From Candidatus Margulisiibacteriota bacterium (GTDB lineage: Bacteria > Margulisbacteria > WOR-1 > O2-12-FULL-45-9 > XYB2-FULL-48-7): a DNA stretch of 64,000 nt. A model generated the notes under the pieces. That model saw only the letters and a program-made list of their open reading frames with translations. It did no database searches and was not told where the DNA came from. The translations under genes and the position numbers were made by a program. This document shows positions 19,538 to 50,235 of the stretch, piece by piece (position 1 is the first letter of the stretch; every line of letters starts with the position of its first letter). The stretch spans positions 276,986-340,985 of the forward strand of contig JALOPZ010000001.1 of assembly GCA_025453605.1 (NCBI GenBank), given 5' to 3'.

Positions 19538-20458
19538 TCACCAGACGCCCGAGAGCGAGATCCGGTGAACATTGGCGCGCGAGAGCGCCTGTTGATTTAC
19601 ATAGGCATAATCAACCAGCGCGTGCTGGAAAGCAAAACCGGCCCCGGCCGTGAAACCACCGCTTGAGTAACCGGTCCGGAACGCGATCCCCCGGTAGATC
19701 GCCTGCTCGAACCCGAGACTGATCTCCGGCGAATAGCCCGAGCGGGCAACTTGACTGACGTCAACCGCCAGCAGCGCGTCCGCCGGCTTATAAGCCAGAC
19801 CGATCCTTATCTTCGGCGGGACCCGCTCCACCGTCCCGGTCCCCCACTGCTGTTCATTAACGAGGTCGTCAACCTTAAGCCCCAGCGTCAACGGCGACGG
19901 GAAACGGACCAATAACCCCGGCGTAACCGAATATCCGGACGCCTGCCCTCCGGCGATCTGGTCCAGCGAGGAATTGAGGTACTTGGCCGTCAGGCCGATC
20001 GAGACGCGGTCGCTGAGCTCCCGGCCGTAGGCGATCAGATAGGCATTGCTGAAGTAGCTGAACTGGCCGAGCTGTTCAACTTCGTTATGCTGATCGACCT
20101 CGCTCGAGGTCTGGGCAATATTACCGAGCGCCACCTGGACCCAGGAGATGCCCAGGGTGCCGCCGAGCGCTTTCTGCACATAGCTGATGTAGAAATGATC
20201 GGCGTCGGTGGAGAGTTTGGTCTGCATCGTGGTGATCTCGCTGCTGGAAACCGTCCCTAAGCCGGCCGGGTTCCAGTACGGCGCGTCGGCGTTATCGGCG
20301 ATCGCAGTAAATGCACCACCCATCCCGAGCGCCCGGGCGCCGACGCCGGATTCGAGCACCGCCAGGTCGGTCCCGCCCTGCCCTTGCGCCAGCACCGGCA
20401 AGGCCAGCAACAATGTCAGATGACCAATGACCAATGTCAAATGAATGTATTTTCTCAT
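19538..20458 (-). CDS. PorV/PorQ-like (FadL-fold) outer-membrane beta-barrel protein
   Basis: Signature GARALGMGGAFTAIADNADAPYWNPAGLG after the signal peptide. C-terminal aromatic (…SLSGVW) beta-signal. ATGA overlap with the giant gene's stop. Confidence 0.6.
   Translation of the reverse strand: MRKYIHLTLVIGHLTLLLALPVLAQGQGGTDLAVLESGVGARALGMGGAFTAIADNADAPYWNPAGLGTVSSSEITTMQTKLSTDADHFYISYVQKALGGTLGISWVQVALGNIAQTSSEVDQHNEVEQLGQFSYFSNAYLIAYGRELSDRVSIGLTAKYLNSSLDQIAGGQASGYSVTPGLLVRFPSPLTLGLKVDDLVNEQQWGTGTVERVPPKIRIGLAYKPADALLAVDVSQVARSGYSPEISLGFEQAIYRGIAFRTGYSSGGFTAGAGFAFQHALVDYAYVNQQALSRANVHRISLSGVW
20412..20446. repeat. heptamer array AATGTCA GATGACC AATGACC AATGTCA AATGAAT (reverse complement unit TTGGTCA)
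   Basis: Read directly. Lies in the signal-peptide coding part (HLTLVIGHLTLL) of the PorV-like gene. Confidence 0.8.
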
Positions 20459-23400
20459 TTAAGCACCGCGATTTTCCCCCGGCCGGTCAGCGACTTATCG
20501 CCCAGGCGGGCGCTGATCTCGAACGGATAGATCCCGTTCATGACCAGCTCTCCCCTCCCGTTCCGGCCGTCCCATTCTATATCGTTATATTTATCCCAAA
20601 TGTTCGCTGATTCTCCGTTCGTCGAGCCATCGAGCTCGGCCACCAGGGCGCCGGTAATACTATAAATCCTGATCTTGACGCTGTCGGCGTCGGCGCCGAG
20701 CCGGTAGCGGATCTTTGTTTTCTCCCTGTTCGGATTGAACGGGTTCGGGAAATTAGTGACCCCGGTCAGCGTCAGCTCCGGCGTGATAGTAAACGACCAG
20801 ACCTCCGACGTCGCCGCCTCATTGGTCGTCAGCGCGGTCACTTTCCAATAGTAGGTGTCGCGGTCGAGACCGGGGTCGAACTCGTGGATGGCGTAGGTGT
20901 AGTTGAAGAGAGCCAGATCAGCTTTATCGGCCGTCCCGGCGCTGGGCGCCTTGGTGAACGTCTGCGCCGCGACGGTAAAGGTGTCATTCTTGGCCACATC
21001 GAGCCGGTAAGCGGTCGTCTCGCCCTGATGATGCCGCCATTCGAAGGTGGGGCGGAGCGAAGTGACGTTCTGGCTGTTATCGGCCGGCGTGATCAACGCG
21101 GGTGATTCCAGCGAGGCCGCCTGACTAATAACTTTATCCATTCTTACTGCAGCGGTTTGCAGTCTTGATGTCGGGTTCCCGCTGACTGGGGCGAAATTAT
21201 GGGGAATCTTCTGAAAATATATGTCCTTATTCCCGCTCCGATTGTCTTCCCAAACGACCAGGCAATCTTCCTGATTCCCGTTAATGGTCAAGGATGGTTT
21301 CGCGGCCACTCCGCTCCTGGTCAATTTCACCTCCCAGGCAGAATCACCCTGCAGGCGACGGTACCACACTTCTCCGGCCCTTATATCCACAGAATGGGTA
21401 AAGGTCTTACCCTGGGTCATGGTCGTTTGACCGGGGGGGCCGTCCACTTTATCCGGCCATTTACCGGCGTTGTTCCAGTTTTTTCCTCCATCCTGGCTGA
21501 TCCTTTGGTATTGATTGTATTTACGGTCGATATAATCCACTTTTGTATATCCTGACCCCTGCCCAAATACAAACTTAACGGTAACGTCAGCATAATACCA
21601 GCCGACAGAAAGATTAACCGTATCAACCGTCTCGCCATCCCCCGTCCCGCCGGCCTTTGACCAGATTTGCGTCCCGCCTGATATGCTCATGCCATTTGAA
21701 GTGTAGATAGCGTGTCCTTCAGCATTCTCCCCATCCGCCCGGCATCTAACTGTCACCGTCTGATCATGATCGATATAGAACGGGCTGCTCGCTCCTCTAA
21801 CCGTCTGGTCTACCGACCAACCGCAGCTTGCGCTGGCATCAGCCGTGCGCACATAGCCATCGTCCGGCGCCCCTTCGGTCCAGCGAATATTTAAGTAATC
21901 CCCATCCGCCAGCACGGCGGGAGAAAACGAATCAGCACTGTTATTGGAAATGTTGATATCATCCCAGATCGCGATCGTTCTCGAGCTATCGACGCTCCTG
22001 TTCCCGGCATTGTCGCTCGCTTCGATCTCCAGGGTATAATCGCCTTCGTTGACGTAATCGCCGTAACTGTTCGTCCCGTCCCAGGAAAAAGCATAACTGC
22101 CGCCTGTCCCCAGTGGCCATTCCCTGATCACCGTCGCGCCGCGTTTGAGCCGCGCGGTGACCGACTGCAAGCCGGCCGGCGCGTCGGCGGCATTAAAGCT
22201 GATCGACGTCGTGTTGGCCGCCAAATAGGGATTGAACGACCCATTGCTAACGCTTAAATTGCCGATCGTCGGCATGGTCCGGAAAATTATCGTTTTGCTG
22301 ACCGGGTCGCTCCAGTTACCGGCGTTATCTCTGAACTGCGCGCTCACGGTTTGGCCGCCTTCGTTGTTTTTTAGTATCCAGGGCCGCGGACCGGGACTTA
22401 ACTCGCCTGACCAGCCGTCGCTATCGTTCCGGACGATCACTGCTGCTACTCCAGAGACCGGGTCATCTGCCTGTAATTTTGTCAGATCAATTGCGATAGT
22501 GTTTGTTTGTCCAGCTTCGTTATTGATCTCCAAAATGCAATTAGTCGGCTTGGTGACATCTTTCTTGATATAGAAAACCGGATCGGCCGTCTCGGTCAGG
22601 TTGCCGGCAATGTCCTGGACCTTAACATAGACCTGATTGGTCCCATCGGTACACTGGTTCGCGAAATCGATCGCCCAGGGAGCGGTGAATTGCGCTTCGC
22701 CGGTCACGATCGGAATTCCGGACCAGCCGGACCCGGTGCCGTCGGCTTTGCGGACCCGGTACTGCGCCAAAGCCAGCCTGGAGGCGTCGGCGCCGTCGTC
22801 GCGGAAGCCGACGTTATAGGTTGTCCCGCCGGCGTTCCGCCAGGCCTCGTCGCCCGTTTGGTTGTCGACCACCACCGGAGCGGTGTTGTCGACGACGACC
22901 TCGCGGGTCATTAGGTTATCTAGCGCCCGGCGACCTAAATAGTCGCGGACGTCGACCCGGAAATAATACTTGCCGTCCGGCACGTACTGGCCGGCGTCAT
23001 CCTTCCCGTTCCAGGCCGCGTAATAGTTGGCCGAGGTAACGAACTCGCCGCTCTCCACCGTCCTGACCAGCTGGCCGGCCTGATCATGGACAGTTACCGT
23101 GTAATAGCCGCCCTTTTTGCCGACCCCGTCCAGCCAGGCGATATCGTCGTCCAGCCCCATCACCTCGATCCGCTCCGGCTCCTCGTAAGACTTGGGGGTC
23201 ACCCCGAGCAAGACCTTGAACCAGTATTTGGCCGCGCCAAAAGCCGGATCTCCCGGATTGTTCTTGGGCGAAAAATAGTGCGGATTCGGGTTGGTCCCGC
23301 CGCGCACGGTCTGGTCCGGCTCCTGCACTTTCAAGGCGTTGTTCTGGATCCAGACCGTCCCGCCCCAGAGGCGCTGGGTCAAGTTACCGGCCCGGTCGCG

Positions 23401-26400
23401 GACCTCGACCAGGAAAGCGTACTTGCCCGGCGCGGCGTAATTCCCGGCGCCGACCGAGCCGTTCCAGATCACGTAACCGGCGCCCGGTTCCTTGAAAATG
23501 TTATTTTCCAGAGTGGTGATCAGATTGGCGGCCGTAAAATCGGACCGGGTATAATCGACGGCCGCCCGGGTGTTGTCCATTTTGTAAACCCTGGTGGTGA
23601 CGTAGCCTGGTTCGCTCAGGTTATACTGTAAAGTAGTCTGCAGGGCCGTTTCGGCAGCGGAAGCGTTGGTCGCAAAATGGCCGGGATTGGCGATCATCCC
23701 CGGTTCGGTCGAAATGCCGACGGTCGGCTCGACCAGGTCGATCACCAAGCTCTCCGGCGAGGAGGACAGCCTGAGCCCTTCGTTGCCGGCAAAGTCGCGG
23801 CCGGCAACCCGCACTTCCGCCGTCCCACTCCAATCGCTGCTGCTGACCGGGTAATTGTAGGAATACTCGCCCGCGGTCAGGCTGTCGTAAATTGCCGGAT
23901 TACCGTTGACCGAGACGTCGGGATTGACTTTGAGCGGCTCCGAACTCTGGAAGCGAATATTGGCTACCGCCCCTGCCTTGACAAATTTGGGCAGGCATTC
24001 AAGGCGGCTGAAGAGCGGAGCGACGGTATCGATCGTCAGCAGCTCGCCGGCCCGATAGGTCGCCGGATTATTGGCCAGATCGCTAACTTCGATGGTGATG
24101 TTCGCCAGACCGTCATTCCCGGCAAAAGCTTTGTACTGCGCGGTGCAAAGTCCGTCGGCAACCGTCCACTGGCCGGTGACCGGGATCAGTTGCGGCGCGG
24201 CGCCACTCTGCGCCACCCAAAGCCTGGGGGCCGATCGGAGCGGTTCGGAGATCTTGAATTGGATCGCGGCGGGACCGCTCACCTCGGGAGTGCTGGCCGG
24301 GTTCGGCACAACGGTCAGCTCGCTGATCGCCGGTTCGGTCTGGTCGATCGTCAGCGTTTTGGTCTTGTTGATCGGATTGAAAGCCAGATCGCGCGCCACT
24401 ACCTCAATGGTCGTTATTCCTTCGCTGTCTGCGCCGACAACCAGATATTGATAAGTGTAGTTGTCGGCTTCTTTGCTGACCAGGCTGGCCGGTCTGATAA
24501 TGCCGTTGCTCAGCAGAAAAGTGACGGACGGATCTTCCGCCACCGGCTCGGGGAAGCTCAGGTTGACAGTGACCGTGTCGCCTAATTTAGCGTAAGCGTG
24601 ACTGAGCGAGAAGTCGGTCGGTTCGGGATTGGTGTAGTCAACGTTGAAGGGGACGGCCTGCGGCACAGCCGTCGTCCCCAGCGCGTCCTGGCCGGTGATT
24701 CGGGCAAAGTAATTGCCGGCCGGGAGCGGTGTCCCGGCGTCCGTCAGTCCGTCGTAGGTGTAAACGTATGAGCCGGCCGTCTTGTTCAAGGTTTTGCTCC
24801 AGAACGCCTCGCCGGAAGCGTTCAGCACTTCCAGCTTGACCAGCCCTTCACTGGAGATGTAAAGCGTCGCGTAATTAAGTCCATAATTGAAGTCGATCGT
24901 ATCCTTGGCCCCGTCGCCGTTCGGGGAAAAGATCACCGGACCGACCGCCAGGTTAACCGCCGGTTTCGTCGAAACCAGCAGCAGTGTCCCCCGCCCCTCG
25001 CTCCCAACCCCTAATTTATCCTCCACACTGACCAAGTAGCGGTAATGACCGTCGGGCACGGCCTGCCCGCTGTCATTCTTTCCGTCCCAGTAGAACGAGT
25101 AGTTGCCCTCCCCCTGCGGGTCATTGGTCAGCAGGTGGCGAACGGTCGAGCCGGTCTCGTTCTGGATATCGAGTGACACCCGGTAATCAGGGGCGCCGCC
25201 GGACAACTGGTAAGTTATCCTGGTCAGGTCCATTAAGCCGTCGCTGTTCGGGGTAAAGGGATCCGGGCTGGCGAGCGCGGCAGTTATCTGCAGGTTTTCC
25301 AGCGGCACAACGGAAAAGCGGTCGGTGATCTGTTCTGCGCTGTTCTGCGCCCGGTCGATCGCCGAAACCTTGATGTATGTTGGCCGCTGGTACTCGGGGT
25401 TAGGCTGGCGGAAAATGGCCCAATGCTCTCCCGCTCCCTGTTCTTCGTTGTTGACCAGGACCTGGACCGGCAGGCCGTCAAGATCGTAAGCCACGGCCTC
25501 AACCGAAGCAGTTTCGGGCAGGACATATTTCAGCGCCGCCCGCCGCTCCTCATAATTGATATTGACCAGATAGGTCAGGATATTGGGCTCGACACTGTCG
25601 ACCACCACCGTATTGGTGATGTCGGCCGGTTCGCCGCCGTCCAGGTCGGTCGCGGTAATCCGAAACTCGTAAGTCCCGTCGCTGATCTTGCTCCCGTTCC
25701 GGCTGCTCTTTGGCCCGGCATAATCGGGGTCGTAACTCCCGTCCCAGGCGACCTGATGCCCCCCTTTGGTCTGGATCTCCCCTTTGATCAACCGTTTGAG
25801 CACCGCCCCGTCCTGGCCGATCACGGTGAGATCGACGCGGACATTGTCCCGGGCCAGCGCGTAACTAAGACGGGTCTGGCCGTTGCGCGGATTGGGCGGC
25901 GAAAAGGGATCGGGCTCGGCAAAAAGATACGGGACCAGCGACGGCTGGCAATCGACCAGAATAGCGGAGGTCTCAGAAGTGGCAATATTACCAGCCTGGT
26001 CTTCCGCCAGCAAATAATAATTTAAGTTCCCACCCAGCAGCTCGTAGCGGCTCCCCCGTCCATCCCACTCCCAGCTGCCGGTCACGGTGGTCTTGCCGGT
26101 CGGGTTAAGGTCCTGCAGATATTTACGGAAGCGTGTTCCGTCTCCCTGTTCGATCACGGTCGTAGCCGCTGCCGGTTCGGACAGCCGATACGAGAAGAGC
26201 GTGCGGTCTTTGGTCCCGTCATTGTTCGGCGTGAACGGATTAGGCGCGGCGGCAAAGCTTTCGATCGTCGGAGGGACGGTGTCGATGGCGACCGCCTGAG
26301 GTTCGCACGTCCCCAGGTTGCCGGCGTCATCTTCCGCGTAAACGCGCAGCTTATATTCCCCATCGGAAAGTGCCGACCCTTCCCAGGTAAAACAGCAATA

Positions 26401-29400
26401 GCCGGGTTCAAGCAACTGCCGCTTGATGATCGTCGCCGCTTCCTTGCCCTCCTTATCCTCGACCAGGATGGTGACCGGGATTTTGGCCGCGTAGTTGTCT
26501 GCCAGGTAAAAGCTGATCTCGGTATTGTCTTTCCGGCTGTCGCCGTTCGGCGAGAAGAAATTATTGGACAACTTGACGTTCTCCAGTCGCGGCGGCTGGA
26601 CGTCGACCAGCACTTCCTGGGTGGCGACCGCGGTATTGCCAGCTAGGTCGGCCGCTTTCAGTTCCAGCACATAGTGCCCCTCGATCACGTAGCTGCCGAT
26701 CTGGCCGTTCCAGTTATCCGTAAAAGCGGTCGGGGTAGTTTTGATCGGCCGATCAGTGGCCATAATAACATTGATCGGCCGGTTGTTCTTGTAGAGGGTG
26801 AGAGTCGCTTCGGCGGTCGGAGCCAGGTTGTCGGCGATCGTGTAATCGATGGTCAGGGCGTTATCAGGGCCCGAGCGGAGCGGCGAAAATGCCGGCGGCG
26901 CGCGGTCCAGATTGACCACCGGCGGGGTGCTGTCGAGCGTCAGGTCAAGGGACTGGCTTTTGACATAATCACCAAAGCTGGCAATGACCTTGAGCGTGTA
27001 CTGGCCGTCGGGCAGCGCGGCCTCGCCGCTGCCATCCCAGACTTCCTCGATCGCGCCGATGCTGCGCGTCACTTTATTGAGCAGCGTGACGGGCGTTCCG
27101 GTCCCGCTTTTCGGGAGCAATTGGATCGTCACGTCAGCCGGCTGACTTAAGTAATAATTGATCTCGAGCGGATCGGTTTTGCCCTTGACCGGCGAGAACC
27201 AGGCGCTTGAGACCCTGACGTTGGCCAGCGCCCCGCCGACATTCCAGACCAGCGGCTGGTCATGTTTGGCGTCGGCGATATACAACCGGCCTTCCCTGAG
27301 CTTGATCTTTTGCGGTTCGATCGCGTATTCTTCGGACTTGTACTCATTGATCATGTTGCCGGCGCTATCGAGCTGGACGATCCGTTGGTTGCCCGCATCC
27401 GCCACCCAGATGTTGCCAAAGGAATCGACATCGACCCCTTTGGGGGATTTAAGGACGCCTTCGCCGAATTTGGAAACAAATGAGCCATCGGAAATGAACT
27501 TTTGGATGCGATTGTTGCCGGTATCGGCAAGATATATGTCCCCGGACTTGTCGATTGCAGCCGCCGGAGAGTCGAACTGCCCATTCGCACTCCCTGGAGG
27601 ATTGGAGTGCCAAAACATCTCCTTCAGCCAGCTCCTTTCCCATGAAGCCTGCCACATATTGGGCCCGCAAGAGCCCCTATCAAATACGATCTGGTCGTTA
27701 AGCGCGTTTGAATAGAACAACGCCCGGTCAACAGTCTGTCCGTTGATCGTAAAATTCTGATTGAACGCGGCCCTTGCCTCATCCTTCAGATCGGCTTTCA
27801 AGACCGAAAATATCTCCGGGGTTCCTGCAACCGTATATTTCAACAAGCGATGCTTCTGACGATCCACCACATATAGCTTATCGCCGCTTGTTGCCACCCC
27901 CCCAGGCAAAGAGTATCCTTCCCCAAAAACCGTCTTCAGGCCGCCGCCGGCTGCACCAGAATAATCCATGTTCCTTAAACCAAGGATCCATGAATAGCTG
28001 TCAACATCCCCATAAACGATATAAGCCTCTTTCCCTTTTATCTGCCTAATAAACCTTAAGTCCCCGTCATAAATCAACACCCGGTTCGCGTAGGTGTCGG
28101 CAATATAGATCCGGTCGCCGGCAGGGGAAACTGCCAGGCCAAGGGGATACCATAAAGTTTCAACCGAGCCCGAACTGGTAGTAAATCCTTCTATCTTCCC
28201 TGTCGCCTTGCCCGCGCTGTCATATCGGACCATCTTCATTTTGTTGGTATACAAAACATACTTGTTGCCGGCATTGTCAAAAGCGATATCACCCACAACC
28301 AGGGCTTTCACTTCTTCGGGGGGAACCAGGCGGACAACGGTTGGATCGGGCGCGCTGTCAGGCGGGGCTGGTTGGCCGGGCAGATTGACTTGGACAGGAA
28401 CATTTCTGACCGTTTGATTGCCCGCCCGATCGATCGCCGTAATCTTGAAAAAGTACCAGCCGTTGGGCATAAATCCTGGTGCGCCCCAAGTAACGCTCAT
28501 TACTTCGTCTTTTTTAAGCTCTGGGTTTGTGGCTAAGTTTTCAATCTCGGCGCTACCCGTCACATCGATGATACTAACAATCGCCGAATACAAGTCTTCA
28601 TTGCTAGAAAACGACAGCAAAGCATCTGCTTCGGAAGTGACGATATATACCGTTGGATCGCTTTTAACGCTCAAATACGGCGGCGTATTGTCGATTTGAA
28701 TTGAGGTAATGCCGTCTCGGTAGGCCGTTAAACCAGTAGTGGGCTCTTTGGCTTCTACCTGATAATAATAAACGCCTTCCCCGCCGCCTCGCCATTCTCC
28801 TTCATACGTAGCACCCGTAGCAGTAAGGGTTCCCGCCGGGTTATTGTGTTCATCAAACATCTTGATCTGCCAATTCACACTTTTGTCTGCACGGGCAGAA
28901 ATCCAAGTACTATTTGTAAAACCAGGGTTATTGGGATGAACGGAGAAATAGGTATTACTTACATCTGTATAGTAAATATTTGGGACCCTAGAAGCAGACA
29001 CCGCCGCGCTTCGCACTCCACCTCCCGCCGCAGCAACGGATATATTGGAGGTGTTCGGATCAAAAAGATTTGCATAGGCCCCGTCGCTGGGAAAGTCTAC
29101 TCCGACCATGCCGACCGTAACAATTCTTTCTCTAGTATCGGGCGGATTCTGAAGATGGAAACCGGCCGCGTCGCGGTAACACGAATACACCTTTACCGTG
29201 ATACGGTAAAGCCCCTGGGAAGGGGTCCAATCCATATAATAATAATCCTTAGCGCTGAACGGCATGCTCATATAATTTGGCTGAAATGCATATACATCTT
29301 CTACTCTGGTCTGAGCAGATTGTTCCTTCCAGATATGGTTCAGGTCATCAAATTGGATGGTCTTTATTGTTTTATTTCTTGTCCCAATCAAGCCCTCTAT

Positions 29401-30081
29401 CTCAAAAACCACCTTGTAAGGGGTCGATGAATAAGAAACACCCGAGGAAGACTTAGCATCAAGGGCTTGATAGGCTTCGATCAAGACCTGCACTGGATGA
29501 TTCGGCTTCGGATAATTGGTCGGCTTGCCCCTGTCCAATATTTTGATGCATTCCGCTTGGGAGAAAGGCGCGAGATCATCAACCGCTATTGTTGCGTCGC
29601 CGTATTTTGGTTGTTCCATGCCGGCAACGACAGGGTTGACCGCTTGATTGCCGTAGATCGACGGCCCCAGACTTAAATGGAGGTGAGGCCTGGTCCCACC
29701 CGTATTGCCTGATAGTGCAACGACTTGCCCCTTACTGACCCGGCCGCTCGTTACTATGATTTGCGACAAGTGCGCATAACGATATTGAAGGGAGCGATCA
29801 TTACTTTCGACCACCAGATATTTTCCCCAACCCGGAGTATTAACATCGTGCGCTTCGGTGATCGTTCCGTCGAACAACGAGCGGATCGGGGTTCCGACCG
29901 GAACCAAGAAGTCCATTCCATCATGCCACTTATAAAAAACTGTTCGGCTTCGGTACTGGCCAAAGTTTGCGGTTATCCCTTTGTATTTATCTGTGAATGG
30001 CTTTGATACTACTTCGGCTTTCACTGCCAAGGTCAGCGCAGCAACAACCAATAGGATAAAAGTAGTCCGCCTTAATGACAT
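20455..30081 (-). CDS. giant secreted surface protein (3208 aa): M23 peptidase, NHL propeller, FlgD-Ig-like and Ig-like modules, FN3-like region, T9SS-type C-terminal domain
   Basis: Signal peptide MSLRRTTFILLVVAALTLAVKA. M23 motifs HDGMD and HLHLS. NHL repeats (ADTGNNRIQKF, ADAGNQRIVQL). Repeated F(S/T)PN(G/N)DGxKD modules. C-terminus FPNPFNPNREKTKIRYRL...IYSITGALVAEL... Confidence 0.85.
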   Translation of the reverse strand: MSLRRTTFILLVVAALTLAVKAEVVSKPFTDKYKGITANFGQYRSRTVFYKWHDGMDFLVPVGTPIRSLFDGTITEAHDVNTPGWGKYLVVESNDRSLQYRYAHLSQIIVTSGRVSKGQVVALSGNTGGTRPHLHLSLGPSIYGNQAVNPVVAGMEQPKYGDATIAVDDLAPFSQAECIKILDRGKPTNYPKPNHPVQVLIEAYQALDAKSSSGVSYSSTPYKVVFEIEGLIGTRNKTIKTIQFDDLNHIWKEQSAQTRVEDVYAFQPNYMSMPFSAKDYYYMDWTPSQGLYRITVKVYSCYRDAAGFHLQNPPDTRERIVTVGMVGVDFPSDGAYANLFDPNTSNISVAAAGGGVRSAAVSASRVPNIYYTDVSNTYFSVHPNNPGFTNSTWISARADKSVNWQIKMFDEHNNPAGTLTATGATYEGEWRGGGEGVYYYQVEAKEPTTGLTAYRDGITSIQIDNTPPYLSVKSDPTVYIVTSEADALLSFSSNEDLYSAIVSIIDVTGSAEIENLATNPELKKDEVMSVTWGAPGFMPNGWYFFKITAIDRAGNQTVRNVPVQVNLPGQPAPPDSAPDPTVVRLVPPEEVKALVVGDIAFDNAGNKYVLYTNKMKMVRYDSAGKATGKIEGFTTSSGSVETLWYPLGLAVSPAGDRIYIADTYANRVLIYDGDLRFIRQIKGKEAYIVYGDVDSYSWILGLRNMDYSGAAGGGLKTVFGEGYSLPGGVATSGDKLYVVDRQKHRLLKYTVAGTPEIFSVLKADLKDEARAAFNQNFTINGQTVDRALFYSNALNDQIVFDRGSCGPNMWQASWERSWLKEMFWHSNPPGSANGQFDSPAAAIDKSGDIYLADTGNNRIQKFISDGSFVSKFGEGVLKSPKGVDVDSFGNIWVADAGNQRIVQLDSAGNMINEYKSEEYAIEPQKIKLREGRLYIADAKHDQPLVWNVGGALANVRVSSAWFSPVKGKTDPLEINYYLSQPADVTIQLLPKSGTGTPVTLLNKVTRSIGAIEEVWDGSGEAALPDGQYTLKVIASFGDYVKSQSLDLTLDSTPPVVNLDRAPPAFSPLRSGPDNALTIDYTIADNLAPTAEATLTLYKNNRPINVIMATDRPIKTTPTAFTDNWNGQIGSYVIEGHYVLELKAADLAGNTAVATQEVLVDVQPPRLENVKLSNNFFSPNGDSRKDNTEISFYLADNYAAKIPVTILVEDKEGKEAATIIKRQLLEPGYCCFTWEGSALSDGEYKLRVYAEDDAGNLGTCEPQAVAIDTVPPTIESFAAAPNPFTPNNDGTKDRTLFSYRLSEPAAATTVIEQGDGTRFRKYLQDLNPTGKTTVTGSWEWDGRGSRYELLGGNLNYYLLAEDQAGNIATSETSAILVDCQPSLVPYLFAEPDPFSPPNPRNGQTRLSYALARDNVRVDLTVIGQDGAVLKRLIKGEIQTKGGHQVAWDGSYDPDYAGPKSSRNGSKISDGTYEFRITATDLDGGEPADITNTVVVDSVEPNILTYLVNINYEERRAALKYVLPETASVEAVAYDLDGLPVQVLVNNEEQGAGEHWAIFRQPNPEYQRPTYIKVSAIDRAQNSAEQITDRFSVVPLENLQITAALASPDPFTPNSDGLMDLTRITYQLSGGAPDYRVSLDIQNETGSTVRHLLTNDPQGEGNYSFYWDGKNDSGQAVPDGHYRYLVSVEDKLGVGSEGRGTLLLVSTKPAVNLAVGPVIFSPNGDGAKDTIDFNYGLNYATLYISSEGLVKLEVLNASGEAFWSKTLNKTAGSYVYTYDGLTDAGTPLPAGNYFARITGQDALGTTAVPQAVPFNVDYTNPEPTDFSLSHAYAKLGDTVTVNLSFPEPVAEDPSVTFLLSNGIIRPASLVSKEADNYTYQYLVVGADSEGITTIEVVARDLAFNPINKTKTLTIDQTEPAISELTVVPNPASTPEVSGPAAIQFKISEPLRSAPRLWVAQSGAAPQLIPVTGQWTVADGLCTAQYKAFAGNDGLANITIEVSDLANNPATYRAGELLTIDTVAPLFSRLECLPKFVKAGAVANIRFQSSEPLKVNPDVSVNGNPAIYDSLTAGEYSYNYPVSSSDWSGTAEVRVAGRDFAGNEGLRLSSSPESLVIDLVEPTVGISTEPGMIANPGHFATNASAAETALQTTLQYNLSEPGYVTTRVYKMDNTRAAVDYTRSDFTAANLITTLENNIFKEPGAGYVIWNGSVGAGNYAAPGKYAFLVEVRDRAGNLTQRLWGGTVWIQNNALKVQEPDQTVRGGTNPNPHYFSPKNNPGDPAFGAAKYWFKVLLGVTPKSYEEPERIEVMGLDDDIAWLDGVGKKGGYYTVTVHDQAGQLVRTVESGEFVTSANYYAAWNGKDDAGQYVPDGKYYFRVDVRDYLGRRALDNLMTREVVVDNTAPVVVDNQTGDEAWRNAGGTTYNVGFRDDGADASRLALAQYRVRKADGTGSGWSGIPIVTGEAQFTAPWAIDFANQCTDGTNQVYVKVQDIAGNLTETADPVFYIKKDVTKPTNCILEINNEAGQTNTIAIDLTKLQADDPVSGVAAVIVRNDSDGWSGELSPGPRPWILKNNEGGQTVSAQFRDNAGNWSDPVSKTIIFRTMPTIGNLSVSNGSFNPYLAANTTSISFNAADAPAGLQSVTARLKRGATVIREWPLGTGGSYAFSWDGTNSYGDYVNEGDYTLEIEASDNAGNRSVDSSRTIAIWDDINISNNSADSFSPAVLADGDYLNIRWTEGAPDDGYVRTADASASCGWSVDQTVRGASSPFYIDHDQTVTVRCRADGENAEGHAIYTSNGMSISGGTQIWSKAGGTGDGETVDTVNLSVGWYYADVTVKFVFGQGSGYTKVDYIDRKYNQYQRISQDGGKNWNNAGKWPDKVDGPPGQTTMTQGKTFTHSVDIRAGEVWYRRLQGDSAWEVKLTRSGVAAKPSLTINGNQEDCLVVWEDNRSGNKDIYFQKIPHNFAPVSGNPTSRLQTAAVRMDKVISQAASLESPALITPADNSQNVTSLRPTFEWRHHQGETTAYRLDVAKNDTFTVAAQTFTKAPSAGTADKADLALFNYTYAIHEFDPGLDRDTYYWKVTALTTNEAATSEVWSFTITPELTLTGVTNFPNPFNPNREKTKIRYRLGADADSVKIRIYSITGALVAELDGSTNGESANIWDKYNDIEWDGRNGRGELVMNGIYPFEISARLGDKSLTGRGKIAVLK

Positions 30082-30856: not shown

Positions 30857-30883
30857 TTATCGGCCCGGCCGGGCGGTTATTTC
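30857..30883 (-). promoter_or_regulatory. sigma-28 (FliA/SigD)-type promoter GAAA-N15-GCCGATAA upstream of the lipoprotein/giant-protein operon
   Basis: Minus-strand read: GAAAtaaccgcccggccggGCCGATAA. The -10 octamer equals the E. coli sigma-28 consensus GCCGATAA. About 40 nt upstream of ATG 30816. Confidence 0.45.
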
Positions 30884-44175: not shown

Positions 44176-44202
44176 GAAATTTTGCCCCGTATTTGACGAT
44201 AT
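44176..44202 (+). promoter_or_regulatory. sigma-28-type promoter motif GAAA-N15-GACGATAT
   Basis: GAAAttttgccccgtatttGACGATATattatagagaaatcATG. Nearly identical in its spacer and flanks to the copy at 50123. Confidence 0.4.
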
Positions 44203-44216
44203 ATTATAGAGAAATC

Positions 44217-46253
44217 ATGGCATTAGTCAGGCCGATCGAAAATAAGCCCCGCTGGCGGCAGTTATTCAAAACCGTCCTCGGTAATGTCATCACCTGGAAA
44301 AACCTCCTCCGCCAGCGTCCGGTAAACCACCTCGAACAAAAGATCATCAATCGGCTGGAAACGGTCGAGCACGCCCTGGTCGAGGGAAAAAGACCGACCC
44401 GGGAGCAGCTTGAGCGGCTCGAAGAAGAGCTGGTAACATACGAACAAAAACGTTCCCTGAGCCGAGCGGAAAAACAGCTGCTCGCGGAGATCAAGGCCGA
44501 GCTGACCGAACTGAAAGAGGTCCAGGCGCCCGTTGTCCCGCTGACGCCGACCGCCAACCAAGCAACCGTCGTCAACCATCCGTTCACCGGCGATCGTCCG
44601 TCGGTCGAGGTTAAACCGGCGGCCGGATTCGAAACCCGTCCTTTCCGCCTGGACAGCCTGATCCGCTTTGACCACCTGATCGGCCGGCAGATCAACCTGG
44701 AGACGCTGCTGCGCGCGCTCAATATCCGGGTTGAATTTCGGGGCAGCGATCGGATCGCCGAACTGGTCTCTCGTCTTATTCTCCGGACCATGGTCGACCG
44801 GCTGGTCCGCGAAATGGCCCGCGTCAGCGAACGCGGCGGGGAGCTGACCGAGCGGGAAATAGAATCGCTGATCCGCACGTTGAACCAGCAGTCGGCAGAG
44901 AGGCTAACGGCAGAACCGGCCAAACCGGCGCCGATCGAAAGCGAACTGACCTATGATCGGACGGAAAAGGCGATCCGCCTGGAGATCAAAGGAGCGGCCG
45001 ATCAAACGGAGGCAAAAGCGGTGCTCCGGGAACTGGCCAAGCCCGACCTGCCGTCGTTTTTGGCCGCTGCCGTTCCGCTCCTGGCCGAATTACCGGATAC
45101 CGTCGCGACGATATCCCAGGTTGTCGCCAGTCTCCCCATCAACGAGCCGGTCCTGGTCAAGTCGGTCACGCAGCTGCTGACCAAAGGCGCCGCACCAGCG
45201 GCCCGCGCGGTCGCCAGCGCCCTGGCCCAGCAATTGCCGCCGGCCGTTGCTCTCCCTCTCCTGCTGCAAACTCACGCTCAGGCGCTGACCGCCGGTAACC
45301 AGCCGGTCGCCCGCGCGGCGGAGCAAACCCTGATCGAATACGCCAGGACCACTGTCGGCCAGCAGGCGGTCGTTACCGCCTTTGTTGAGGTCAAATCCCG
45401 GCCGCTGACCACCTCGGCCATCGGCCAAAAAGCGCTCTTGGCCGCGGTGACAGCTGTCCCGACTGAAGTCCGGGCAACTGCGCCCGGCACCGCCCAGTCT
45501 ACCGTCGAGAAAGTGCTTAACCATGTGCGGGAGATCGTCAAGGCTAATCCGGCGCAACTGGCGCCGGCCGCTCTGACCGCCGAAAAAGCGATCGCGCTGA
45601 TCGAACTGGCCGTCAGGCTCGAACGGTCACCCGCCGTCATTGCCCGTCAGGAAAAAGCCGCCCCTCCCCGCCGGCGCGTCAGTTCTCTGCCGCAGCCAAA
45701 GGTCGGGATCGTCAATTCTCTGGCCCGGCGCGCCGTGAACCGGAACCCGGTCATCCAGAACCGAGTAGCTGTCGCCCAGCGCGAGCTCAAGGGGGTCATG
45801 AGGGCAGCTGAAGCGGCTAACCTGGTCCTCCCCAAGAGCGTGATCGAACACCTCTGTTCCGGCCTGGCCGGGATCAATCTCGCTCCGCTCCTGAACCAAC
45901 CGTCGGTGGGCGGGCAGTTTCAGTCACCGACAGAATCTCGTTCCGCCAGTTCGCTGCGCCACGTAGTCCGCGCTTTGGAAGCGCAGGCGGCGCGGGCGAT
46001 CAGCAGCAAGGACCCGATCGCCCTGACCCGGGTTTTTACCCTCTCCGCCCAGGTCATGCTCTACGGCATCATTATGCGGCTGGTCGGCGGCAAGCTGAGC
46101 CGGGTCGATCAGGTGATCGAACTCCTCAGACAGAAGAAGGAACTTGCCCGGATCGTCGCCAAGATCAGGCAGGGCGATATTCATGATGCCACCGAGGAGC
46201 TGTACGACGCCGTCCACGCCACGACCGCCTACTCCGAGCTGCTTGCTGCTTAA
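44217..46253 (+). CDS. hypothetical protein (678 aa), Ala/Leu/Glu/Arg-rich, helical, no signal peptide
   Basis: Long clean ORF with ATG 44217 14 nt after the promoter motif. No recognisable domain. Confidence 0.6.
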   Translation: MALVRPIENKPRWRQLFKTVLGNVITWKNLLRQRPVNHLEQKIINRLETVEHALVEGKRPTREQLERLEEELVTYEQKRSLSRAEKQLLAEIKAELTELKEVQAPVVPLTPTANQATVVNHPFTGDRPSVEVKPAAGFETRPFRLDSLIRFDHLIGRQINLETLLRALNIRVEFRGSDRIAELVSRLILRTMVDRLVREMARVSERGGELTEREIESLIRTLNQQSAERLTAEPAKPAPIESELTYDRTEKAIRLEIKGAADQTEAKAVLRELAKPDLPSFLAAAVPLLAELPDTVATISQVVASLPINEPVLVKSVTQLLTKGAAPAARAVASALAQQLPPAVALPLLLQTHAQALTAGNQPVARAAEQTLIEYARTTVGQQAVVTAFVEVKSRPLTTSAIGQKALLAAVTAVPTEVRATAPGTAQSTVEKVLNHVREIVKANPAQLAPAALTAEKAIALIELAVRLERSPAVIARQEKAAPPRRRVSSLPQPKVGIVNSLARRAVNRNPVIQNRVAVAQRELKGVMRAAEAANLVLPKSVIEHLCSGLAGINLAPLLNQPSVGGQFQSPTESRSASSLRHVVRALEAQAARAISSKDPIALTRVFTLSAQVMLYGIIMRLVGGKLSRVDQVIELLRQKKELARIVAKIRQGDIHDATEELYDAVHATTAYSELLAA

Positions 46254-46344
46254 GCCGGCACTGTCGAAAAACGCTACACTATTTCCCTTCCCCACGCTCA
46301 ACTAACCCTGGTAATAAGATTGCTGGTACCAGGATATGCATTTG

Positions 46345-46930
46345 TCGCTAATTTTCACGAATTTGCTGGCATCTCTAATTACACCAATAAATGAGATCGC
46401 GAATCTGCTAATTACGCAGATAATCGCGAATTTTCAAAGGAGGAGGAGCGCATGGCTGATTTGATCTATCCTGAGCTGAGTTATCGGCTGATCGGGATAC
46501 TTTACGCCGTTTATAACAGGCTTGGTGGAGGTTACCAGGAAAAGTACTACCAGCAAGCCGTGCGGCATGAGCTGCTAACTGCCGGCATCCCTTTTCTGGA
46601 ACAGGTTAAGTGCAACCTCTTTTACCAGGGTAAGCCATTAGGCCGCTACTATCTGGATTTTATCGTTGACCATACGATCGTCGTCGAGCTAAAAGCTGCG
46701 TCGTCTTTCTCAAAAAGGGACATCATGCAGGTCCTTAACTATCTGAAGCAGAGTAATCTGGAACTTGGGATTCTCGCCAGCTTTAGCCGCAACTCTATTT
46801 TCTATAAACGTATTTTAAGGGGCAGATCGCCTTATCCGGATTAGCGTATTTTTCGCGATCATTAGCGTAATTAGAGGTCATTCCCTTCGCGTAATTCGTG
46901 AGAGGACAAATTAGTGAAAATTAGTGTTGC
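46345..46930. mobile_element. low-GC ~590-bp cassette: GxxExxY gene flanked by ~90-nt imperfect inverted repeats
   Basis: The left arm (GCTAATTTTCACGAATTTG, CTCTAATTAC, GATCGCGAA) matches the reverse complement of the right arm (CACTAATTTTCACTAATTTG, CTCTAATTAC, GATCGCGAA). The AT-rich character contrasts with the flanks. Confidence 0.35.
46452..46844 (+). CDS. GxxExxY family protein (PD-(D/E)XK-like fold)
   Basis: GGGYQEKYY (GxxExxY), then DFIVDHTIVVELK core. 130 aa. Strong SD AAGGAGGAGGAG. Confidence 0.75.
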   Translation: MADLIYPELSYRLIGILYAVYNRLGGGYQEKYYQQAVRHELLTAGIPFLEQVKCNLFYQGKPLGRYYLDFIVDHTIVVELKAASSFSKRDIMQVLNYLKQSNLELGILASFSRNSIFYKRILRGRSPYPD

Positions 46931-46951
46931 ATTTAATCGGCCTCCTCAGCG

Positions 46952-46978
46952 CAAGTTTATAGCCACTTCCTCCGATAT
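46952..46978 (+). promoter_or_regulatory. sigma-28-type promoter motif CAAG-N15-TCCGATAT
   Basis: CAAGtttatagccacttccTCCGATATgtaagtGGAGGGaaaccATG. Confidence 0.4.
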
Positions 46979-46995
46979 GTAAGTGGAGGGAAACC

Positions 46996-47187
46996 ATGAG
47001 CGTTAATAAAGCTGATTCAACGATGGGAAAAGGCGGTCTCGAATTTTACCAGAAGATGGACGCCAGCGGCGCGGGTAAGGATTTTACCAGTAAGATGACC
47101 AAAGAGCTGCTGCAAACTCACGCCAACGCGCGCTACCAGCAGTCGATGGCCGCCCAGAAGAACCTGGCGAACAGTTACAAGGTGTAA
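46996..47187 (+). CDS. small hypothetical protein (63 aa)
   Basis: Has its own SD (GGAGGG) and promoter motif. Hydrophilic, helical C-terminus. No family recognised. Confidence 0.45.
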   Translation: MSVNKADSTMGKGGLEFYQKMDASGAGKDFTSKMTKELLQTHANARYQQSMAAQKNLANSYKV

Positions 47188-47206
47188 ATTTATCTTGTTC
47201 CGGATG

Positions 47207-47233
47207 CAAGTTTTCTGACCCTGGATCCGATAA
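47207..47233 (+). promoter_or_regulatory. sigma-28-type promoter motif CAAG-N15-TCCGATAA
   Basis: CAAGttttctgaccctggaTCCGATAAtatag. Confidence 0.4.
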
Positions 47234-47245
47234 TATAGATGGAAA

Positions 47246-47301
47246 CCCGGCTTGCCTGTAGTCGGGGATCTTGAACCAAGACCGAACAGGCTTGGTTTTT
47301 T
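47246..47301 (+). promoter_or_regulatory. leader element: hairpin CCCGGC[TTGCCTGTA]GTCGGG plus intrinsic terminator AACCAAG-N10-CTTGGTTTTTT
   Basis: Stems read directly (47246-47266 and 47274-47301). Located between the promoter motif and ATG 47324. Paralogous to 50162-50221. Confidence 0.5.
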
Positions 47302-47323
47302 GCTTATATAGGGGGATATTTAG

Positions 47324-50062
47324 ATGGCCGATGGACCGAAAATAGACGGATATTATAAAGGGAGCAAGCTGATCAAAAACCAGCCGCCGGCTGGTTTTGA
47401 AGGCATCGCCCATCAGTCTGACGGGAAATGCATTGATTTGGGCAAAGATAAGGCGGAAGTCAGTTGCTCAGCCAAGAGCGCTAAAGCAAGCAAAAAAGAC
47501 GCCCCCAGCAAAGCCCAGGACGCAACCGCCAAAGAGATCGTCAAAGATCTGACCGCTCTGGGCAAAAAATATAATATGCCTGTTTACGCCGTCGGTGAGA
47601 ACAGGGTCAATCTCCTGACCCAGAAAACCAAAGAGCAGATCAAGATCGTCGCCAATTATACTGTTAACAATCCGGAGCTGAACGCCGGTGTGGTCGGTTC
47701 GTTCAACGCGAAATTAACCCGGGCCTTAGAGAGCTGCGGCCACCTCGTCAACGTTGATAAAGTTCAGGCCCTGCTGGCCAAGGGCTTGACCCTGGCCGAC
47801 ATCACCAAGCTGGAAGGGAAAGAAGGCTTTGCCCTGATCGAAGCCCTGATCAACCTGCTGGCCGACAAAACGGAAGCAAAGGATTATTACACCACCGCCG
47901 GGCTGCACGAAAAACTCAGCCTGCTGCTGACCGATCCCGGCGCCGACACCGCCGAGCTCAAAGCCCTCAAGGGTCAGCTGGCCGCGGCGCTCAAGGAAGG
48001 CCCCGAAAATAAGGCCTATCAGGCGACCCTGAAAATGGCGGAAGAGACGATCGGTGTCCACGAGGCCCCGCCCCCTTCGTCCCCGGCAGTGAGCGAACCG
48101 GTTAACACCGATGTTATATCCGATCAGGTGTTAGTCGCCCGGCTGAACATCAATCTGGCCAAGGGGGTCAACGCCAGCCAGATCAGGCTCGACCAGCGGA
48201 ACAGCCGCTACAACGAGGGATTATTTGCCGCGATCGACAACCAGATGCTGGCCAACGGGACGAACGGCGACGGCGTCATCGTCATCGGCGAGCTCCGCCG
48301 GTTCTACGAGACGGTCCAATGGTTCGCCCAGCAGACCGGCCTCTCCTTTGAACAGGCGCTGGAACGCTATCAGACGGAGTCGCTGACCAACGTCAATCGG
48401 GCCGAAGTCGAAGGAGCGGTCAGCCAGCTCAAGACGATGATCGCCGCCAATCTGGGGGGCGCGCCGCTGAACAGCCTGACCTTGCCGGGGGTGCTGAAAA
48501 AATGCGGCCTGGCCGATTTCATGATCGGGTCGGTCGTCGTTCCGTTCGCCAACACCACCCGGGAGATCGACCCGGCCAAAGTGATCCAGGCGATCATGCT
48601 CCGCGTTTTCGCCGCCCGCTCGGGGAGCGCCGACCAGATCGCCCATTGGGGCCTCCCTAAAGATAAGACAATGCCTAATACCATCCCACTCGACGCCGAG
48701 CTTAACAAGAACAACATCCTCGCCTACGCCTGCGGCCAAGATATCCAGGGGGGGAAAGCGGTTGGAAGCGCCGCGTCGGGCGATCCGATCAGACAACACC
48801 AGGACGAAGATGACTTTAAGGCCATCTTCAAAGCGAGCAACAAGGGGCAAAAGAGCGACCTCGCCGACCGGTACATCAGCAAATTCATGCAAGCCGGTGA
48901 CCCGGAGAAAGCCGAATATTTCGCGCGCTACTTTGACAACCCCGCCTCGGGCTCTCACCATATTAAACAGTACCGCGGGCTCAAACGGTATGCCGGAGAA
49001 ATAGGGAAGAAATACGCGGAACAGACGGCATATCAAAAAGCCTTCGACATTTATAAAGAACTGACCGACGAACCGAAGAAATGGGGGCTACTGGCTCAAC
49101 TGGCGCAAAAGAGCGTCTCGGCCGGCAAGAGCCAGGCGGAGAGAGATATCGCGTCGGCGATCATTCAATATCTTGAAGCGAAGAGCGTTACTACCGTCCC
49201 CTGGCAAAACGCGCAGGGGGGCGAAACCGAGACGCCGCTCGGTCAGGTCAAGGCGTTGGTCACCGACCTCATCGCCAAAGACCACCGGATCGCGACCTAC
49301 GAAGCAAACCTGCTCCGCGTCGGTAACAGCGAACAGTATGGTCTGCAGAACATCGGCGAAATGATCAAGCTGCTGACCGGCCAGGAAGAGGCGGCGCGCC
49401 GGGCGGTTGTCGAGCTTAACGGGGTGATCAAGGAAACCAAAAACCCTTATGATCAAGCCTACGCCCTGTATGTGAAGGGGGCCCTCCTCTACGCGATCGC
49501 CCAGGAGCACACCCCCACCAGTCAGGTCAAGTTCGGGGAAAAAACGGTTTCCGGTCAGGCTTTGTACAAGGAGGCAATGACCGCTCTGAAGCGTTCGTGG
49601 GACATCGCTATTAACCAGCGGGACGACGCTAAATATCGGACCCTGCTCGAGCGTTCGTTCCAGACGATGATCTACATTACCGACGGGATCAAGCACGGCC
49701 GGTATCTTGCCAAGGAACAAGACAAAAAGAAGGCTGCCCAGGAGCTAGCCGGTATAATGCCCTCCTACGGAAAAGACGGGGAAAAAGATATTCAGGCCAG
49801 ATATTATGACGCCAAGGTCAAGGCTGGTCTCTCCCTTACTCCGGCCGCTTATCGTAAAACGCTCAGTGCAGAGAAGAAGGAGACGAATTACACCCCGGTG
49901 CTGGATGACGCGGTCAAGGCGGCAACTACGTTGCCAGCGGCCAAACCGACACCCAGGAGGGCAGAAGGGGACAAAGTTATAGCGAGTTCAGCCAAACCCG
50001 TTGGCGAAAAAAAGAGCAAGGGGCCAAGCGGGGAAGATGATCTGGCCAAGGCAATGAATTAA
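47324..50062 (+). CDS. hypothetical protein (912 aa), helical, no signal peptide
   Basis: Long clean ORF with SD GGGGGA 7 nt upstream. Lys/Ala-rich low-complexity termini. No recognisable catalytic motif. Confidence 0.65.
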   Translation: MADGPKIDGYYKGSKLIKNQPPAGFEGIAHQSDGKCIDLGKDKAEVSCSAKSAKASKKDAPSKAQDATAKEIVKDLTALGKKYNMPVYAVGENRVNLLTQKTKEQIKIVANYTVNNPELNAGVVGSFNAKLTRALESCGHLVNVDKVQALLAKGLTLADITKLEGKEGFALIEALINLLADKTEAKDYYTTAGLHEKLSLLLTDPGADTAELKALKGQLAAALKEGPENKAYQATLKMAEETIGVHEAPPPSSPAVSEPVNTDVISDQVLVARLNINLAKGVNASQIRLDQRNSRYNEGLFAAIDNQMLANGTNGDGVIVIGELRRFYETVQWFAQQTGLSFEQALERYQTESLTNVNRAEVEGAVSQLKTMIAANLGGAPLNSLTLPGVLKKCGLADFMIGSVVVPFANTTREIDPAKVIQAIMLRVFAARSGSADQIAHWGLPKDKTMPNTIPLDAELNKNNILAYACGQDIQGGKAVGSAASGDPIRQHQDEDDFKAIFKASNKGQKSDLADRYISKFMQAGDPEKAEYFARYFDNPASGSHHIKQYRGLKRYAGEIGKKYAEQTAYQKAFDIYKELTDEPKKWGLLAQLAQKSVSAGKSQAERDIASAIIQYLEAKSVTTVPWQNAQGGETETPLGQVKALVTDLIAKDHRIATYEANLLRVGNSEQYGLQNIGEMIKLLTGQEEAARRAVVELNGVIKETKNPYDQAYALYVKGALLYAIAQEHTPTSQVKFGEKTVSGQALYKEAMTALKRSWDIAINQRDDAKYRTLLERSFQTMIYITDGIKHGRYLAKEQDKKKAAQELAGIMPSYGKDGEKDIQARYYDAKVKAGLSLTPAAYRKTLSAEKKETNYTPVLDDAVKAATTLPAAKPTPRRAEGDKVIASSAKPVGEKKSKGPSGEDDLAKAMN

Positions 50063-50122
50063 TAGCCCCCAAGCTACCGTATTTTTGCCGTTTTTATAAC
50101 AATTATTAGCCTCTCATCCATG

Positions 50123-50149
50123 CAAGTTTTGCCCCCGTCATTTCGATAT
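50123..50149 (+). promoter_or_regulatory. sigma-28-type promoter motif CAAG-N15-TTCGATAT
   Basis: CAAGttttgcccccgtcatTTCGATATatatag. Confidence 0.4.
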
Positions 50150-50161
50150 ATATAGTGAAGC

Positions 50162-50221
50162 GGAATTACGGTTGCCTGTACCGGAATTCGGCGTATGAAC
50201 CCACTTAACAGGTGGGTTTTT
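50162..50221 (+). promoter_or_regulatory. leader element: hairpin GGAATTACGG[TTGCCTGTA]CCGGAATTC plus intrinsic terminator AACCCAC-N7-GTGGGTTTTT
   Basis: Stems read directly (50162-50189 and 50198-50221). Located between the promoter motif and ATG 50236. Confidence 0.5.
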
Positions 50222-50235
50222 GTTTAAGGAACAAA

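Follow-up and report, generated by a model that had tools for sequence, protein, structure and literature searches.

Results

Sites in the window

The DNA analysed here (the window) is a stretch of 64,000 nt from a Candidatus Margulisiibacteriota genome (assembly GCA_025453605.1, contig JALOPZ010000001.1, positions 276,986 to 340,985 of the forward strand), which carries several copies of a bipartite element resembling the promoters of sigma-28 (FliA/SigD)-type factors. It contains ordinary chromosomal genes (lysS, metF, coaX, ruvAC, smpB/tmRNA, dapB, dut, mdh, fumarase and lnt), and its lysyl-tRNA synthetase (LysRS) is 64–84% identical to those of metagenome-assembled genomes (MAGs) of candidate division WOR-1, Candidatus Saganbacteria or Margulisiibacteriota, and at most 58% identical to anything else. 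On this evidence the source organism is a Candidatus Saganbacteria (WOR-1) bacterium. The Saganbacteria/Margulisiibacteriota are an uncultured sister lineage of the Cyanobacteria. After lysS-metF, where relatives carry relA/spoT and other genes, the source genome carries orphan genes, and the label of island previously given to this region is thus reasonable. The four plus-strand copies that the initial annotation had reported here (sites 1–4, Table 1) lie where it placed them and read as it gave them, and the exact 15-nt spacer that it described holds in all four, as well as in two minus-strand copies absent from its list (sites 5 and 6).

Sites 1–4 fall within the small non-coding fraction of the window, just upstream of open reading frames (ORFs). 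The −35 part reads GAAA at sites 1, 5 and 6 and CAAG at sites 2–4, and the −10 part contains CGATA at all five main sites; site 6 strongly resembles site 1, but has CGAAA instead. Site 1 is the top match to the lineage consensus within the window (position weight matrix, PWM, score 26.7); GCAAGTTT, found at three window sites, is a local variant of the GTGAAATTT that characterizes the lineage. A Shine-Dalgarno (SD) sequence, GGAGGG, sits between site 2 and the ATG of the 63-aa ORF. The distance to the start codon is 7–25 nt at sites 1, 2, 5 and 6, and at most of the sites found in related genomes as well. A weak candidate is located within the 3′-terminal part of the 3208-aa ORF; the motif stands ahead of the orthologues of the downstream 996-aa gene in two relatives (L049 and L003). 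Two strong copies are found in the 10 kb to the left of the window on the same 790,553-bp contig, one (L083:6797) preceding the gene of an SLH-domain protein and the other (L083:8844) a 354-aa gene followed by the 691-aa gene of the window, which brings the convincing sites on the source contig to about eight in 84 kb.

Table 1. Motif sites, leaders and ORFs in the window. Start codons follow the gene calls of the source contig.
Feature	Positions	Strand	Sequence	Description
Site 1	44176–44202	+	cctGAAATTTTgccccgtatttgaCGATAT	GAAA-N15-GACGATAT; ends 15 nt before ATG of 678-aa ORF
Site 2	46952–46978	+	gCAAGTTTatagccacttcctcCGATAT	CAAG-N15-TCCGATAT; ends 18 nt before ATG of 63-aa ORF
Site 3	47207–47233	+	tgCAAGTTTTctgaccctggatcCGATAA	CAAG-N15-TCCGATAA; 91 nt before start of 912-aa ORF
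Site 4	50123–50149	+	tgCAAGTTTTgcccccgtcatttCGATAT	CAAG-N15-TTCGATAT; about 85–87 nt before start of 2948-aa ORF
Site 5	30857–30883	−	gtGAAAtaaccgcccggccgggcCGATAA	GAAA-N15-GCCGATAA; upstream of 236-aa and 3208-aa ORFs
Site 6	15495–15521	−	cctGAAATccgccctattatttgaCGAAAA	GAAA-N15-GACGAAAA; intergenic, upstream of 665-aa ORF
Weak candidate site	20579–20605	−	gcGAACATTtgggataaatataaCGATAT	Inside 3′ end of 3208-aa ORF, 146 nt upstream of 306-aa and 996-aa genes
Leader after site 3	47240–47305	+		Hairpin with loop UGCCUGU, then terminator-like hairpin with ACAGGC (loop-complementary), U-run
Leader after site 4	50156–50222	+		Same UGCCUGU loop, different stem, then terminator-like hairpin with ACAGG, U-run
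678-aa ORF	44217–46253	+		No family match; C-terminal ~350 aa shared with about 30 remote, unnamed relatives
63-aa ORF	46996–47187	+		No family match
912-aa ORF	47324–50062	+		Orphan; sole match among 5.8 billion proteins is itself
2948-aa ORF	50236–59082	+		No family match; no relative in any fetched locus
3208-aa ORF	20455–30081	−		Surface protein; FlgD_ig, NHL, M23 and CHU_C/Por tail domains

The occurrence of the motif in the window clearly exceeds expectation. Exact matches to AAGTTT-N14-CGATA number three against 0.03 expected, these being the three copies previously described as sharing an extended upstream element, and the fourth copy is recovered when one mismatch is allowed (four matches, 0.69 expected); none of 100 dinucleotide shuffles reaches three or four matches, respectively. 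The looser pattern AAR-N17-CGATAW yields eight matches against 1.66 expected, five of which are intergenic and directed towards a gene, while the three inside genes are at about chance level. The intergenic excess is at odds with an element occurring at background frequency in coding DNA, which the initial annotation had named as grounds for abandoning its interpretation.

Canonical promoters of the TTGnnn-N17-TATAAT type, which had been noted ahead of housekeeping genes, were also seen upstream of lysS (TTGTAA-18-TATAAT, with TG before the −10), in the divergent region by cca (TTGTAA-17-TATAAT) and at other places in the window, such as the 3′ end of smpB (TTGACA-16-TATACT). The last of these (window 7234–7291, plus strand) is directly preceded by GTGAAATTG-N14-CGAAA, with a PWM score of 21, and the two may form a tandem promoter for the downstream small ORFs and tmRNA.

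Distribution of the motif across the phylum

A scan with LysRS provided 37 related loci (563 kb) and 43 control loci from other phyla (668 kb), the related loci being sampled around a single gene (lysS) or by the motif itself, and a consensus scan of metagenomes added at least 120 loci, about one in three of them apparently genuine. Logan contig L002, which shares 18.6 kb with the window at 100% identity, hence adds no comparative information. The pattern AARTTT-N14-CGATA finds 30 matches in the related MAG DNA and none in that of the other phyla, and changing the spacer to N10, N12, N13, N15, N16 or N18 leaves only 0–2 matches. The resulting lineage consensus, aaaaaGTGAAATTTyC-N10-tgaCGATAaata, extends to positions that formed no part of the search, with T at −2 in 26 of the 30 matches, G at −1 in 29 and an A-rich stretch upstream; downstream of the motif, a conserved A/T-rich stretch ends in TAGAG. 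With a PWM threshold of at least 16 bits, 55 matches are obtained in the related loci, at least one of them in 30 of the 37 loci, against none in the controls, and 71% of PWM matches lie outside long reading frames, compared with 9% of random positions (Fisher p = 2e-26). Furthermore, when the search is anchored on TGAAATTT alone, more than half of its 76 occurrences show C-G-A-T-A at exactly +22 to +26, and no TATAAT signal emerges among them.

Orthologous genes retain both blocks of the motif while the spacer between them diverges. This pattern is seen in at least 11 genomes for a two-transmembrane (two-TM) protein, in four for a 75-aa Zn-ribbon protein and in three for relA/spoT. The persistence of the two blocks in the face of spacer drift constitutes a phylogenetic footprint of a bipartite promoter. 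Judging from this distribution, the putative promoter class is a property of the lineage and not particular to the island. The two-TM protein (L016:8975-9244, L023:8787-9089 and orthologues) spans 90–100 aa, adjoins coaX and has a cytoplasmic N-terminus followed by C-terminal TM helices; no family match was obtained for it. In the window genome its gene is missing from the syntenic position, and only 26 nt separate ruvC from coaX there.

A conserved FliA/WhiG-family sigma factor

The question whether a fliA/sigD homologue accompanies the motif, raised in the initial annotation, has an affirmative answer for the phylum. On contig L159, a perfect consensus site occurs together with a 236-aa sigma factor gene that heads flgB-flgC-fliE-fliF-fliG-fliH-fliI-fliJ. 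The family to which its product belongs shows 65–97% identity across more than 400 proteins (414 matches at E < 1e-10, and 3750 with a profile), whose source names are FliA or 'sigma 28 subunit SigD/FliA/WhiG' and whose sources are Ca. Saganbacteria, WOR-1 and Margulisiibacteriota MAGs. The best NCBIfam model for the lineage sigma factor is TIGR02479 (FliA_WhiG), matched over its full length (2–224 of 224). Its top matches in the PDB are 6pfj/6pfv, labelled only as 'RNA polymerase sigma factor' and presumably the Streptomyces WhiG-RsiG complex, together with FliA 6pmi, 9wsf and 1rp3, and the labelled WhiG chain 7lq4 ranks next. A tblastn search with FliA/SigD returned nothing in the first 82 loci.

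In five independent contigs (L159 and four others) the sigma gene lies between flgI and flgB. The gene order in the four others is mreBCD-pbp2-L25-unknown-FlhB_C-like-flgF-flgG-flgA-flgH-flgI-small ORF-sigma-flgB-flgC-fliE-fliF-fliG-fliH-fliI-fliJ. The small ORF ahead of the sigma gene was considered as a candidate FlgM and rejected, since by eye it looks like a FlgJ-type rod-binding peptide. The cluster (L205:4093-16222, L207, L208, L209, L159) encodes rod, L/P-ring, MS-ring and export-ATPase proteins, with a FliG of only 149–172 aa that comprises the N domain and part of M and lacks the C-terminal torque domain. Within 10 kb of the cluster there are no motAB, fliMN, hook or filament genes, and in four 20-kb loci no motif match with a PWM score of at least 10 was found in the flagellar/sigma cluster, giving no sign of autoregulation there. 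Some Margulisbacteria have been described as possessing flagellar superoperons and flagellins (PMC11607428, PMC7018530). No description of promoters in the Saganbacteria/Margulisiibacteriota was found in the literature; neither motility nor sigma factors are treated in the main paper on Saganbacteria genomes, and the supplements of the FlgV paper do not mention Margulisbacteria.

Genes downstream of the motif

Across the lineage, about 60% of 40 downstream proteins scanned have no Pfam domain. Those with a Pfam match include relA/spoT (three genomes), PFK (two), PGM-like, GH8, HEAT-repeat and SLH/S-layer-type (two) proteins, a subtilase, an M28 peptidase, a ClpP-like protein, HAD and two CheR-like methyltransferases. 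The latter are the only motility-related family among these 40 proteins, such that the search for flagellin and chemotaxis genes proposed in the initial annotation yielded a hint of chemotaxis and no flagellin; nor does a flagellin, MotA or CheY-type gene follow any site in the window, the 37 related loci or the at least 120 metagenome loci. As far as it has been sampled, the predicted regulon is broad and not one of motility. In a Margulisiibacteriota MAG, a consensus site (L202:8654-8680) ends 19 nt before the ATG of rpoD (MFA6169917.1; L202 gene 8698-9762), which suggests cross-regulation between the two sigma factors.

Within the window, local BLAST detected neither paralogy among the 678-, 63-, 912- and 2948-aa proteins nor relatives of them in any fetched locus, and none of the four matched a family in Pfam, NCBIfam or PHROGs. 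The 236-aa ORF behind site 5 encodes a signal-peptide protein. Giant ORFs are unusually concentrated in this part of the genome. Besides the 3208-aa protein and the 2948-aa orphan, there are proteins that carry TIG, He_PIG or SLH domains and measure at least 1508, 770 and 644 aa (L083:1-8737), and several of these giant ORFs stand behind sigma-28-type sites. Between sites 1 and 2, a gene for a GxxExxY/PD-(D/E)XK_3 protein (46452–46844) lies in a low-GC segment of about 580 bp (46342–46924) whose edges are nested imperfect inverted repeats (46348–46365/46907–46924, 94%; 46408–46430/46852–46874, 87%). It has no sigma-28-type site of its own and looks like a small inserted mobile cassette.

Structured leaders after sites 3 and 4

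The leaders that follow sites 3 and 4 carry identical 7-nt UGCCUGU loops on unrelated stems. In both, ACAGG, complementary to the loop, lies downstream of it (at 26 and 28 nt), the T-run starts at +36 and +37, and an SD sequence and the ATG follow. Rfam gives no match in the island region, either at the gathering threshold or when E values of up to 5 are admitted, and its sole real match across the window is the tmRNA at 8058–8470; no further copy of the leader hairpin was found in about 2 Mb of fetched DNA, and MAFFT produced no structural alignment of the two leaders. Given that there are only two copies and no relatives, any function can be proposed only tentatively: on sequence features, the leaders could be attenuators in which loop-terminator pairing decides read-through, or a pair of roughly 65-nt sigma-28-dependent small RNAs.

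Discussion

The combination of a strictly spaced bipartite element that extends across the phylum, a CGATA block, a register identical to that of Escherichia coli and a conserved FliA/WhiG-family sigma factor makes it probable that the sites described here serve as promoters recognized by RNA polymerase together with the FliA/WhiG-family (sigma-28-type) sigma factor of the lineage. The initial annotation had arrived at a sigma-28 assignment from the four island copies, and the fit of the −10 block to CGATA bears this out. Its alignment of the −35 block does not stand, because with the spacer fixed the AAGTTT of the window sites is shifted by one base relative to the AAGTTT of E. coli; the in-register alignment sets CAAGTTTw against TAAAGTTT (counted on the tar promoter printed in PMC4183435). 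This error in register leaves the sigma-28 conclusion unchanged. The further proposal that the island is wired to a motility-type sigma factor holds as regards the type of promoter and needs revision as regards scope, since the class is lineage-wide and genes for flagellin, hook or motor are absent from its sampled regulon. The term 'motility-type' thus applies to the sigma family rather than to its targets.

In the model proposed here, region 4 of the sigma factor would read the upstream block, GTGAAATTT in the lineage and GCAAGTTT at three of the window sites, and regions 2/3 would recognize nnCGATAw, the downstream block, the distance between the two blocks being invariant. The start of transcription would fall some 7–10 nt after CGATA, in the A/T-rich stretch that ends in TAGAG, as suggested by the behavior of the family and by the conservation of the TAGAG region. 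Sites 1, 2, 5 and 6 would hence give rise to very short mRNA leaders with the SD sequence near the 5′ end, and sites 3 and 4 to structured leaders of roughly 85–90 nt. The sigma factor would not be a flagellar specialist in this lineage, but would drive many transcription units, mostly for large, lineage-specific proteins of no known family or for cell-surface proteins, together with some housekeeping regulators. From sequence comparison we infer that a FliA/WhiG-family factor reads the motif, that transcription starts at these positions and that the source genome encodes the sigma gene.

Several observations weigh against this interpretation. The lineage sigma factor scores 134–143 bits against TIGR02479, below the cut-off of 189.6 (the next subfamily, SigB/F/G, reaches 75–82 bits). 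No sigma gene of this family lies in the window or its 10-kb flanks, and no protein of the source contig appears among the sigma family matches listed, such that the homologue sought since the initial annotation is established for the phylum and not for the immediate surroundings of the sites. Sites 2–4 carry GC at the conserved TG and have low PWM scores, and sites 1 and 4 overlap weak sigma-70-like sequences, TTGCCC-N16/17-TATAG(A/T). None of roughly 90 sites examined precedes a flagellin, hook-associated or motAB gene. Lastly, the density of sites, about one in every 10 kb of sampled lineage DNA, is a rough estimate, because the related loci were drawn from around lysS or by the motif.

The overlaps with sigma-70-like sequences bear on the possibility that the motif is an unusual RpoD promoter, with GTGAAA or TTGCCC as a −35-like and GATAAT or TATAGA as a −10-like element. 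GTGAAA matches TTGACA at four of six positions and GATAAT matches TATAAT at five of six, with a spacer of 18 nt, and a frequent motif that precedes housekeeping genes, including relA/spoT, pfk and rpoD itself, is what such a promoter might be expected to show. Nevertheless, C and G are conserved in the unbiased C-G-A-T-A block, neither of which an RpoD −10 would require, and the spacing is fixed to one value, whereas sigma-70 tolerates 16–18 nt. Moreover, at site 5 and at many sites of the relatives, CGATA is not followed by anything TATA-like, and the RpoD of the lineage is 62% identical to E. coli RpoD over regions 2–4. The coexistence of canonical sites and CGATA sites instead indicates two promoter classes in the window, and we regard RpoD recognition as unlikely.

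The sub-threshold score of the candidate sigma factor and the non-flagellar character of the sampled regulon could also be accommodated if a different alternative sigma factor read the motif and its likeness to sigma-28 promoters were convergent. To our knowledge, no other sigma family combines a CGATA −10 with a TAAA-type −35 at 15 nt, which argues against this explanation, as do the unusual conservation of the FliA-family factor in the phylum, expected of a factor with many targets, and the presence of both the sigma gene and a consensus site on contig L159; recognition by another factor hence appears quite unlikely. It is highly improbable that the four island copies are not promoters at all, and represent remnants of local duplication or shared repressor or activator sites, given that the 11 identical bases and related leader common to sites 3 and 4, the TTTTGCCCC-N8-CGATATAT spacer sequence common to sites 1 and 4, and the orphan, perhaps recently arrived, island genes have to be set against the same blocks and spacing in dozens of unrelated intergenic regions (30 of 37 related MAG loci), where neither the spacers nor the downstream genes are related, always oriented towards a gene at a promoter-like distance from its start codon.

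Promoters of the sigma-28 type are well characterized in other phyla, and recognition of the lineage motif by a FliA/WhiG-family factor can be weighed against them. The class 3 promoters of E. coli and Salmonella FliA (TAAAGTTT-N11-GCCGATAA, as in tar) share with the lineage motif a start-to-start distance of 20 nt between AAA and CGATA, the CGATA core of the −10 and a T-rich second half of the −35, and the lineage GAAATTTy matches TAAAGTTT at 6–7 of 8 positions in register. In both cases the sigma gene is linked to flagellar genes. The E. coli FliA sites determined by chromatin immunoprecipitation include one with TGAAATTG-N11-GCCGATAA, and FliA of E. coli likewise occupies numerous sites that are non-flagellar or lie inside genes (PMC4183435). 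The lineage differs in that its consensus starts with GTGAAATTT rather than TAAAGTTT, in that the bases before CGATA are weakly conserved and read tg/ga rather than GC, and in that none of the lineage sites was found to precede a gene for flagellin, a motor protein or a chemoreceptor. The density estimated above for the lineage is also far higher than that of E. coli, with 52 sites in 4.6 Mb.

The likeness to Bacillus subtilis SigD promoters (TAAA-N15-GCCGATAT) that had been pointed out earlier is apparent by eye, and comprises the 15-nt spacer and, at three window sites, a CGATAT ending. The SigD regulon is made up of flagellin, motility, chemotaxis and autolysin genes; in the lineage, only the CheR-like methyltransferases hint at chemotaxis. 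Closer precedents for a broad regulon outside motility are, by analogy, found in Chlamydia and Streptomyces. Streptomyces WhiG, which belongs to the sigma-28 family and recognizes a TAAA/GCCGATAA-type consensus, governs a sporulation, and hence non-motility, regulon; its direct targets are few, and it is under the control of the anti-sigma factor RsiG with cyclic di-GMP, whereas no anti-sigma factor was identified in the lineage. The sigma-28 regulon of Chlamydia is small and consists of late developmental genes. According to two reports (PMC12282069, PMC10597470), Chlamydia trachomatis sigma-28 is a FliA-family factor that serves non-flagellar genes, through a sigma-28-type consensus, in an organism with no flagellum. 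In the Margulisiibacteriota lineage, by contrast, copies of the motif are numerous, and the gene for the sigma factor has kept its place in a flagellar basal-body cluster.

Sigma-28 promoters are thus textbook knowledge, and non-flagellar sigma-28 regulons are known to exist. What is new here is a lineage-specific consensus of high frequency ahead of a largely unknown, non-flagellar set of genes that includes giant orphans and rpoD, and a divergent yet highly conserved sigma factor encoded in a gene cluster that seems to specify a basal body alone and whose FliG is truncated. The giant orphan proteins make these genomes unusual, and the sequence evidence suggests that a FliA-family sigma factor has been co-opted for a broad, mostly non-flagellar programme of which they form part. 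A more far-reaching and rather unlikely proposal is that the flagellar sigma factor has taken on the role of a second general-purpose sigma factor over at least a tenth of transcription units (S-layer, giant proteins, relA/spoT, pfk, rpoD) while staying genetically linked to the reduced basal body, that this basal body acts as a checkpoint or export device and not as a motor, and that the large orphans without signal peptides behind these promoters, among them the 678-, 912- and 2948-aa proteins, are its substrates.

On the practical side, GTGAAATTT-N14-CGATA marks transcription units in MAGs of the lineage, delimits a regulon straight from sequence and can be used to correct start codons. The SLH gene to the left of the window provides an example, as its call (L083:6803) starts inside its own predicted promoter (L083:6797-6830), and the true start is probably an ATG about 20–30 nt downstream.

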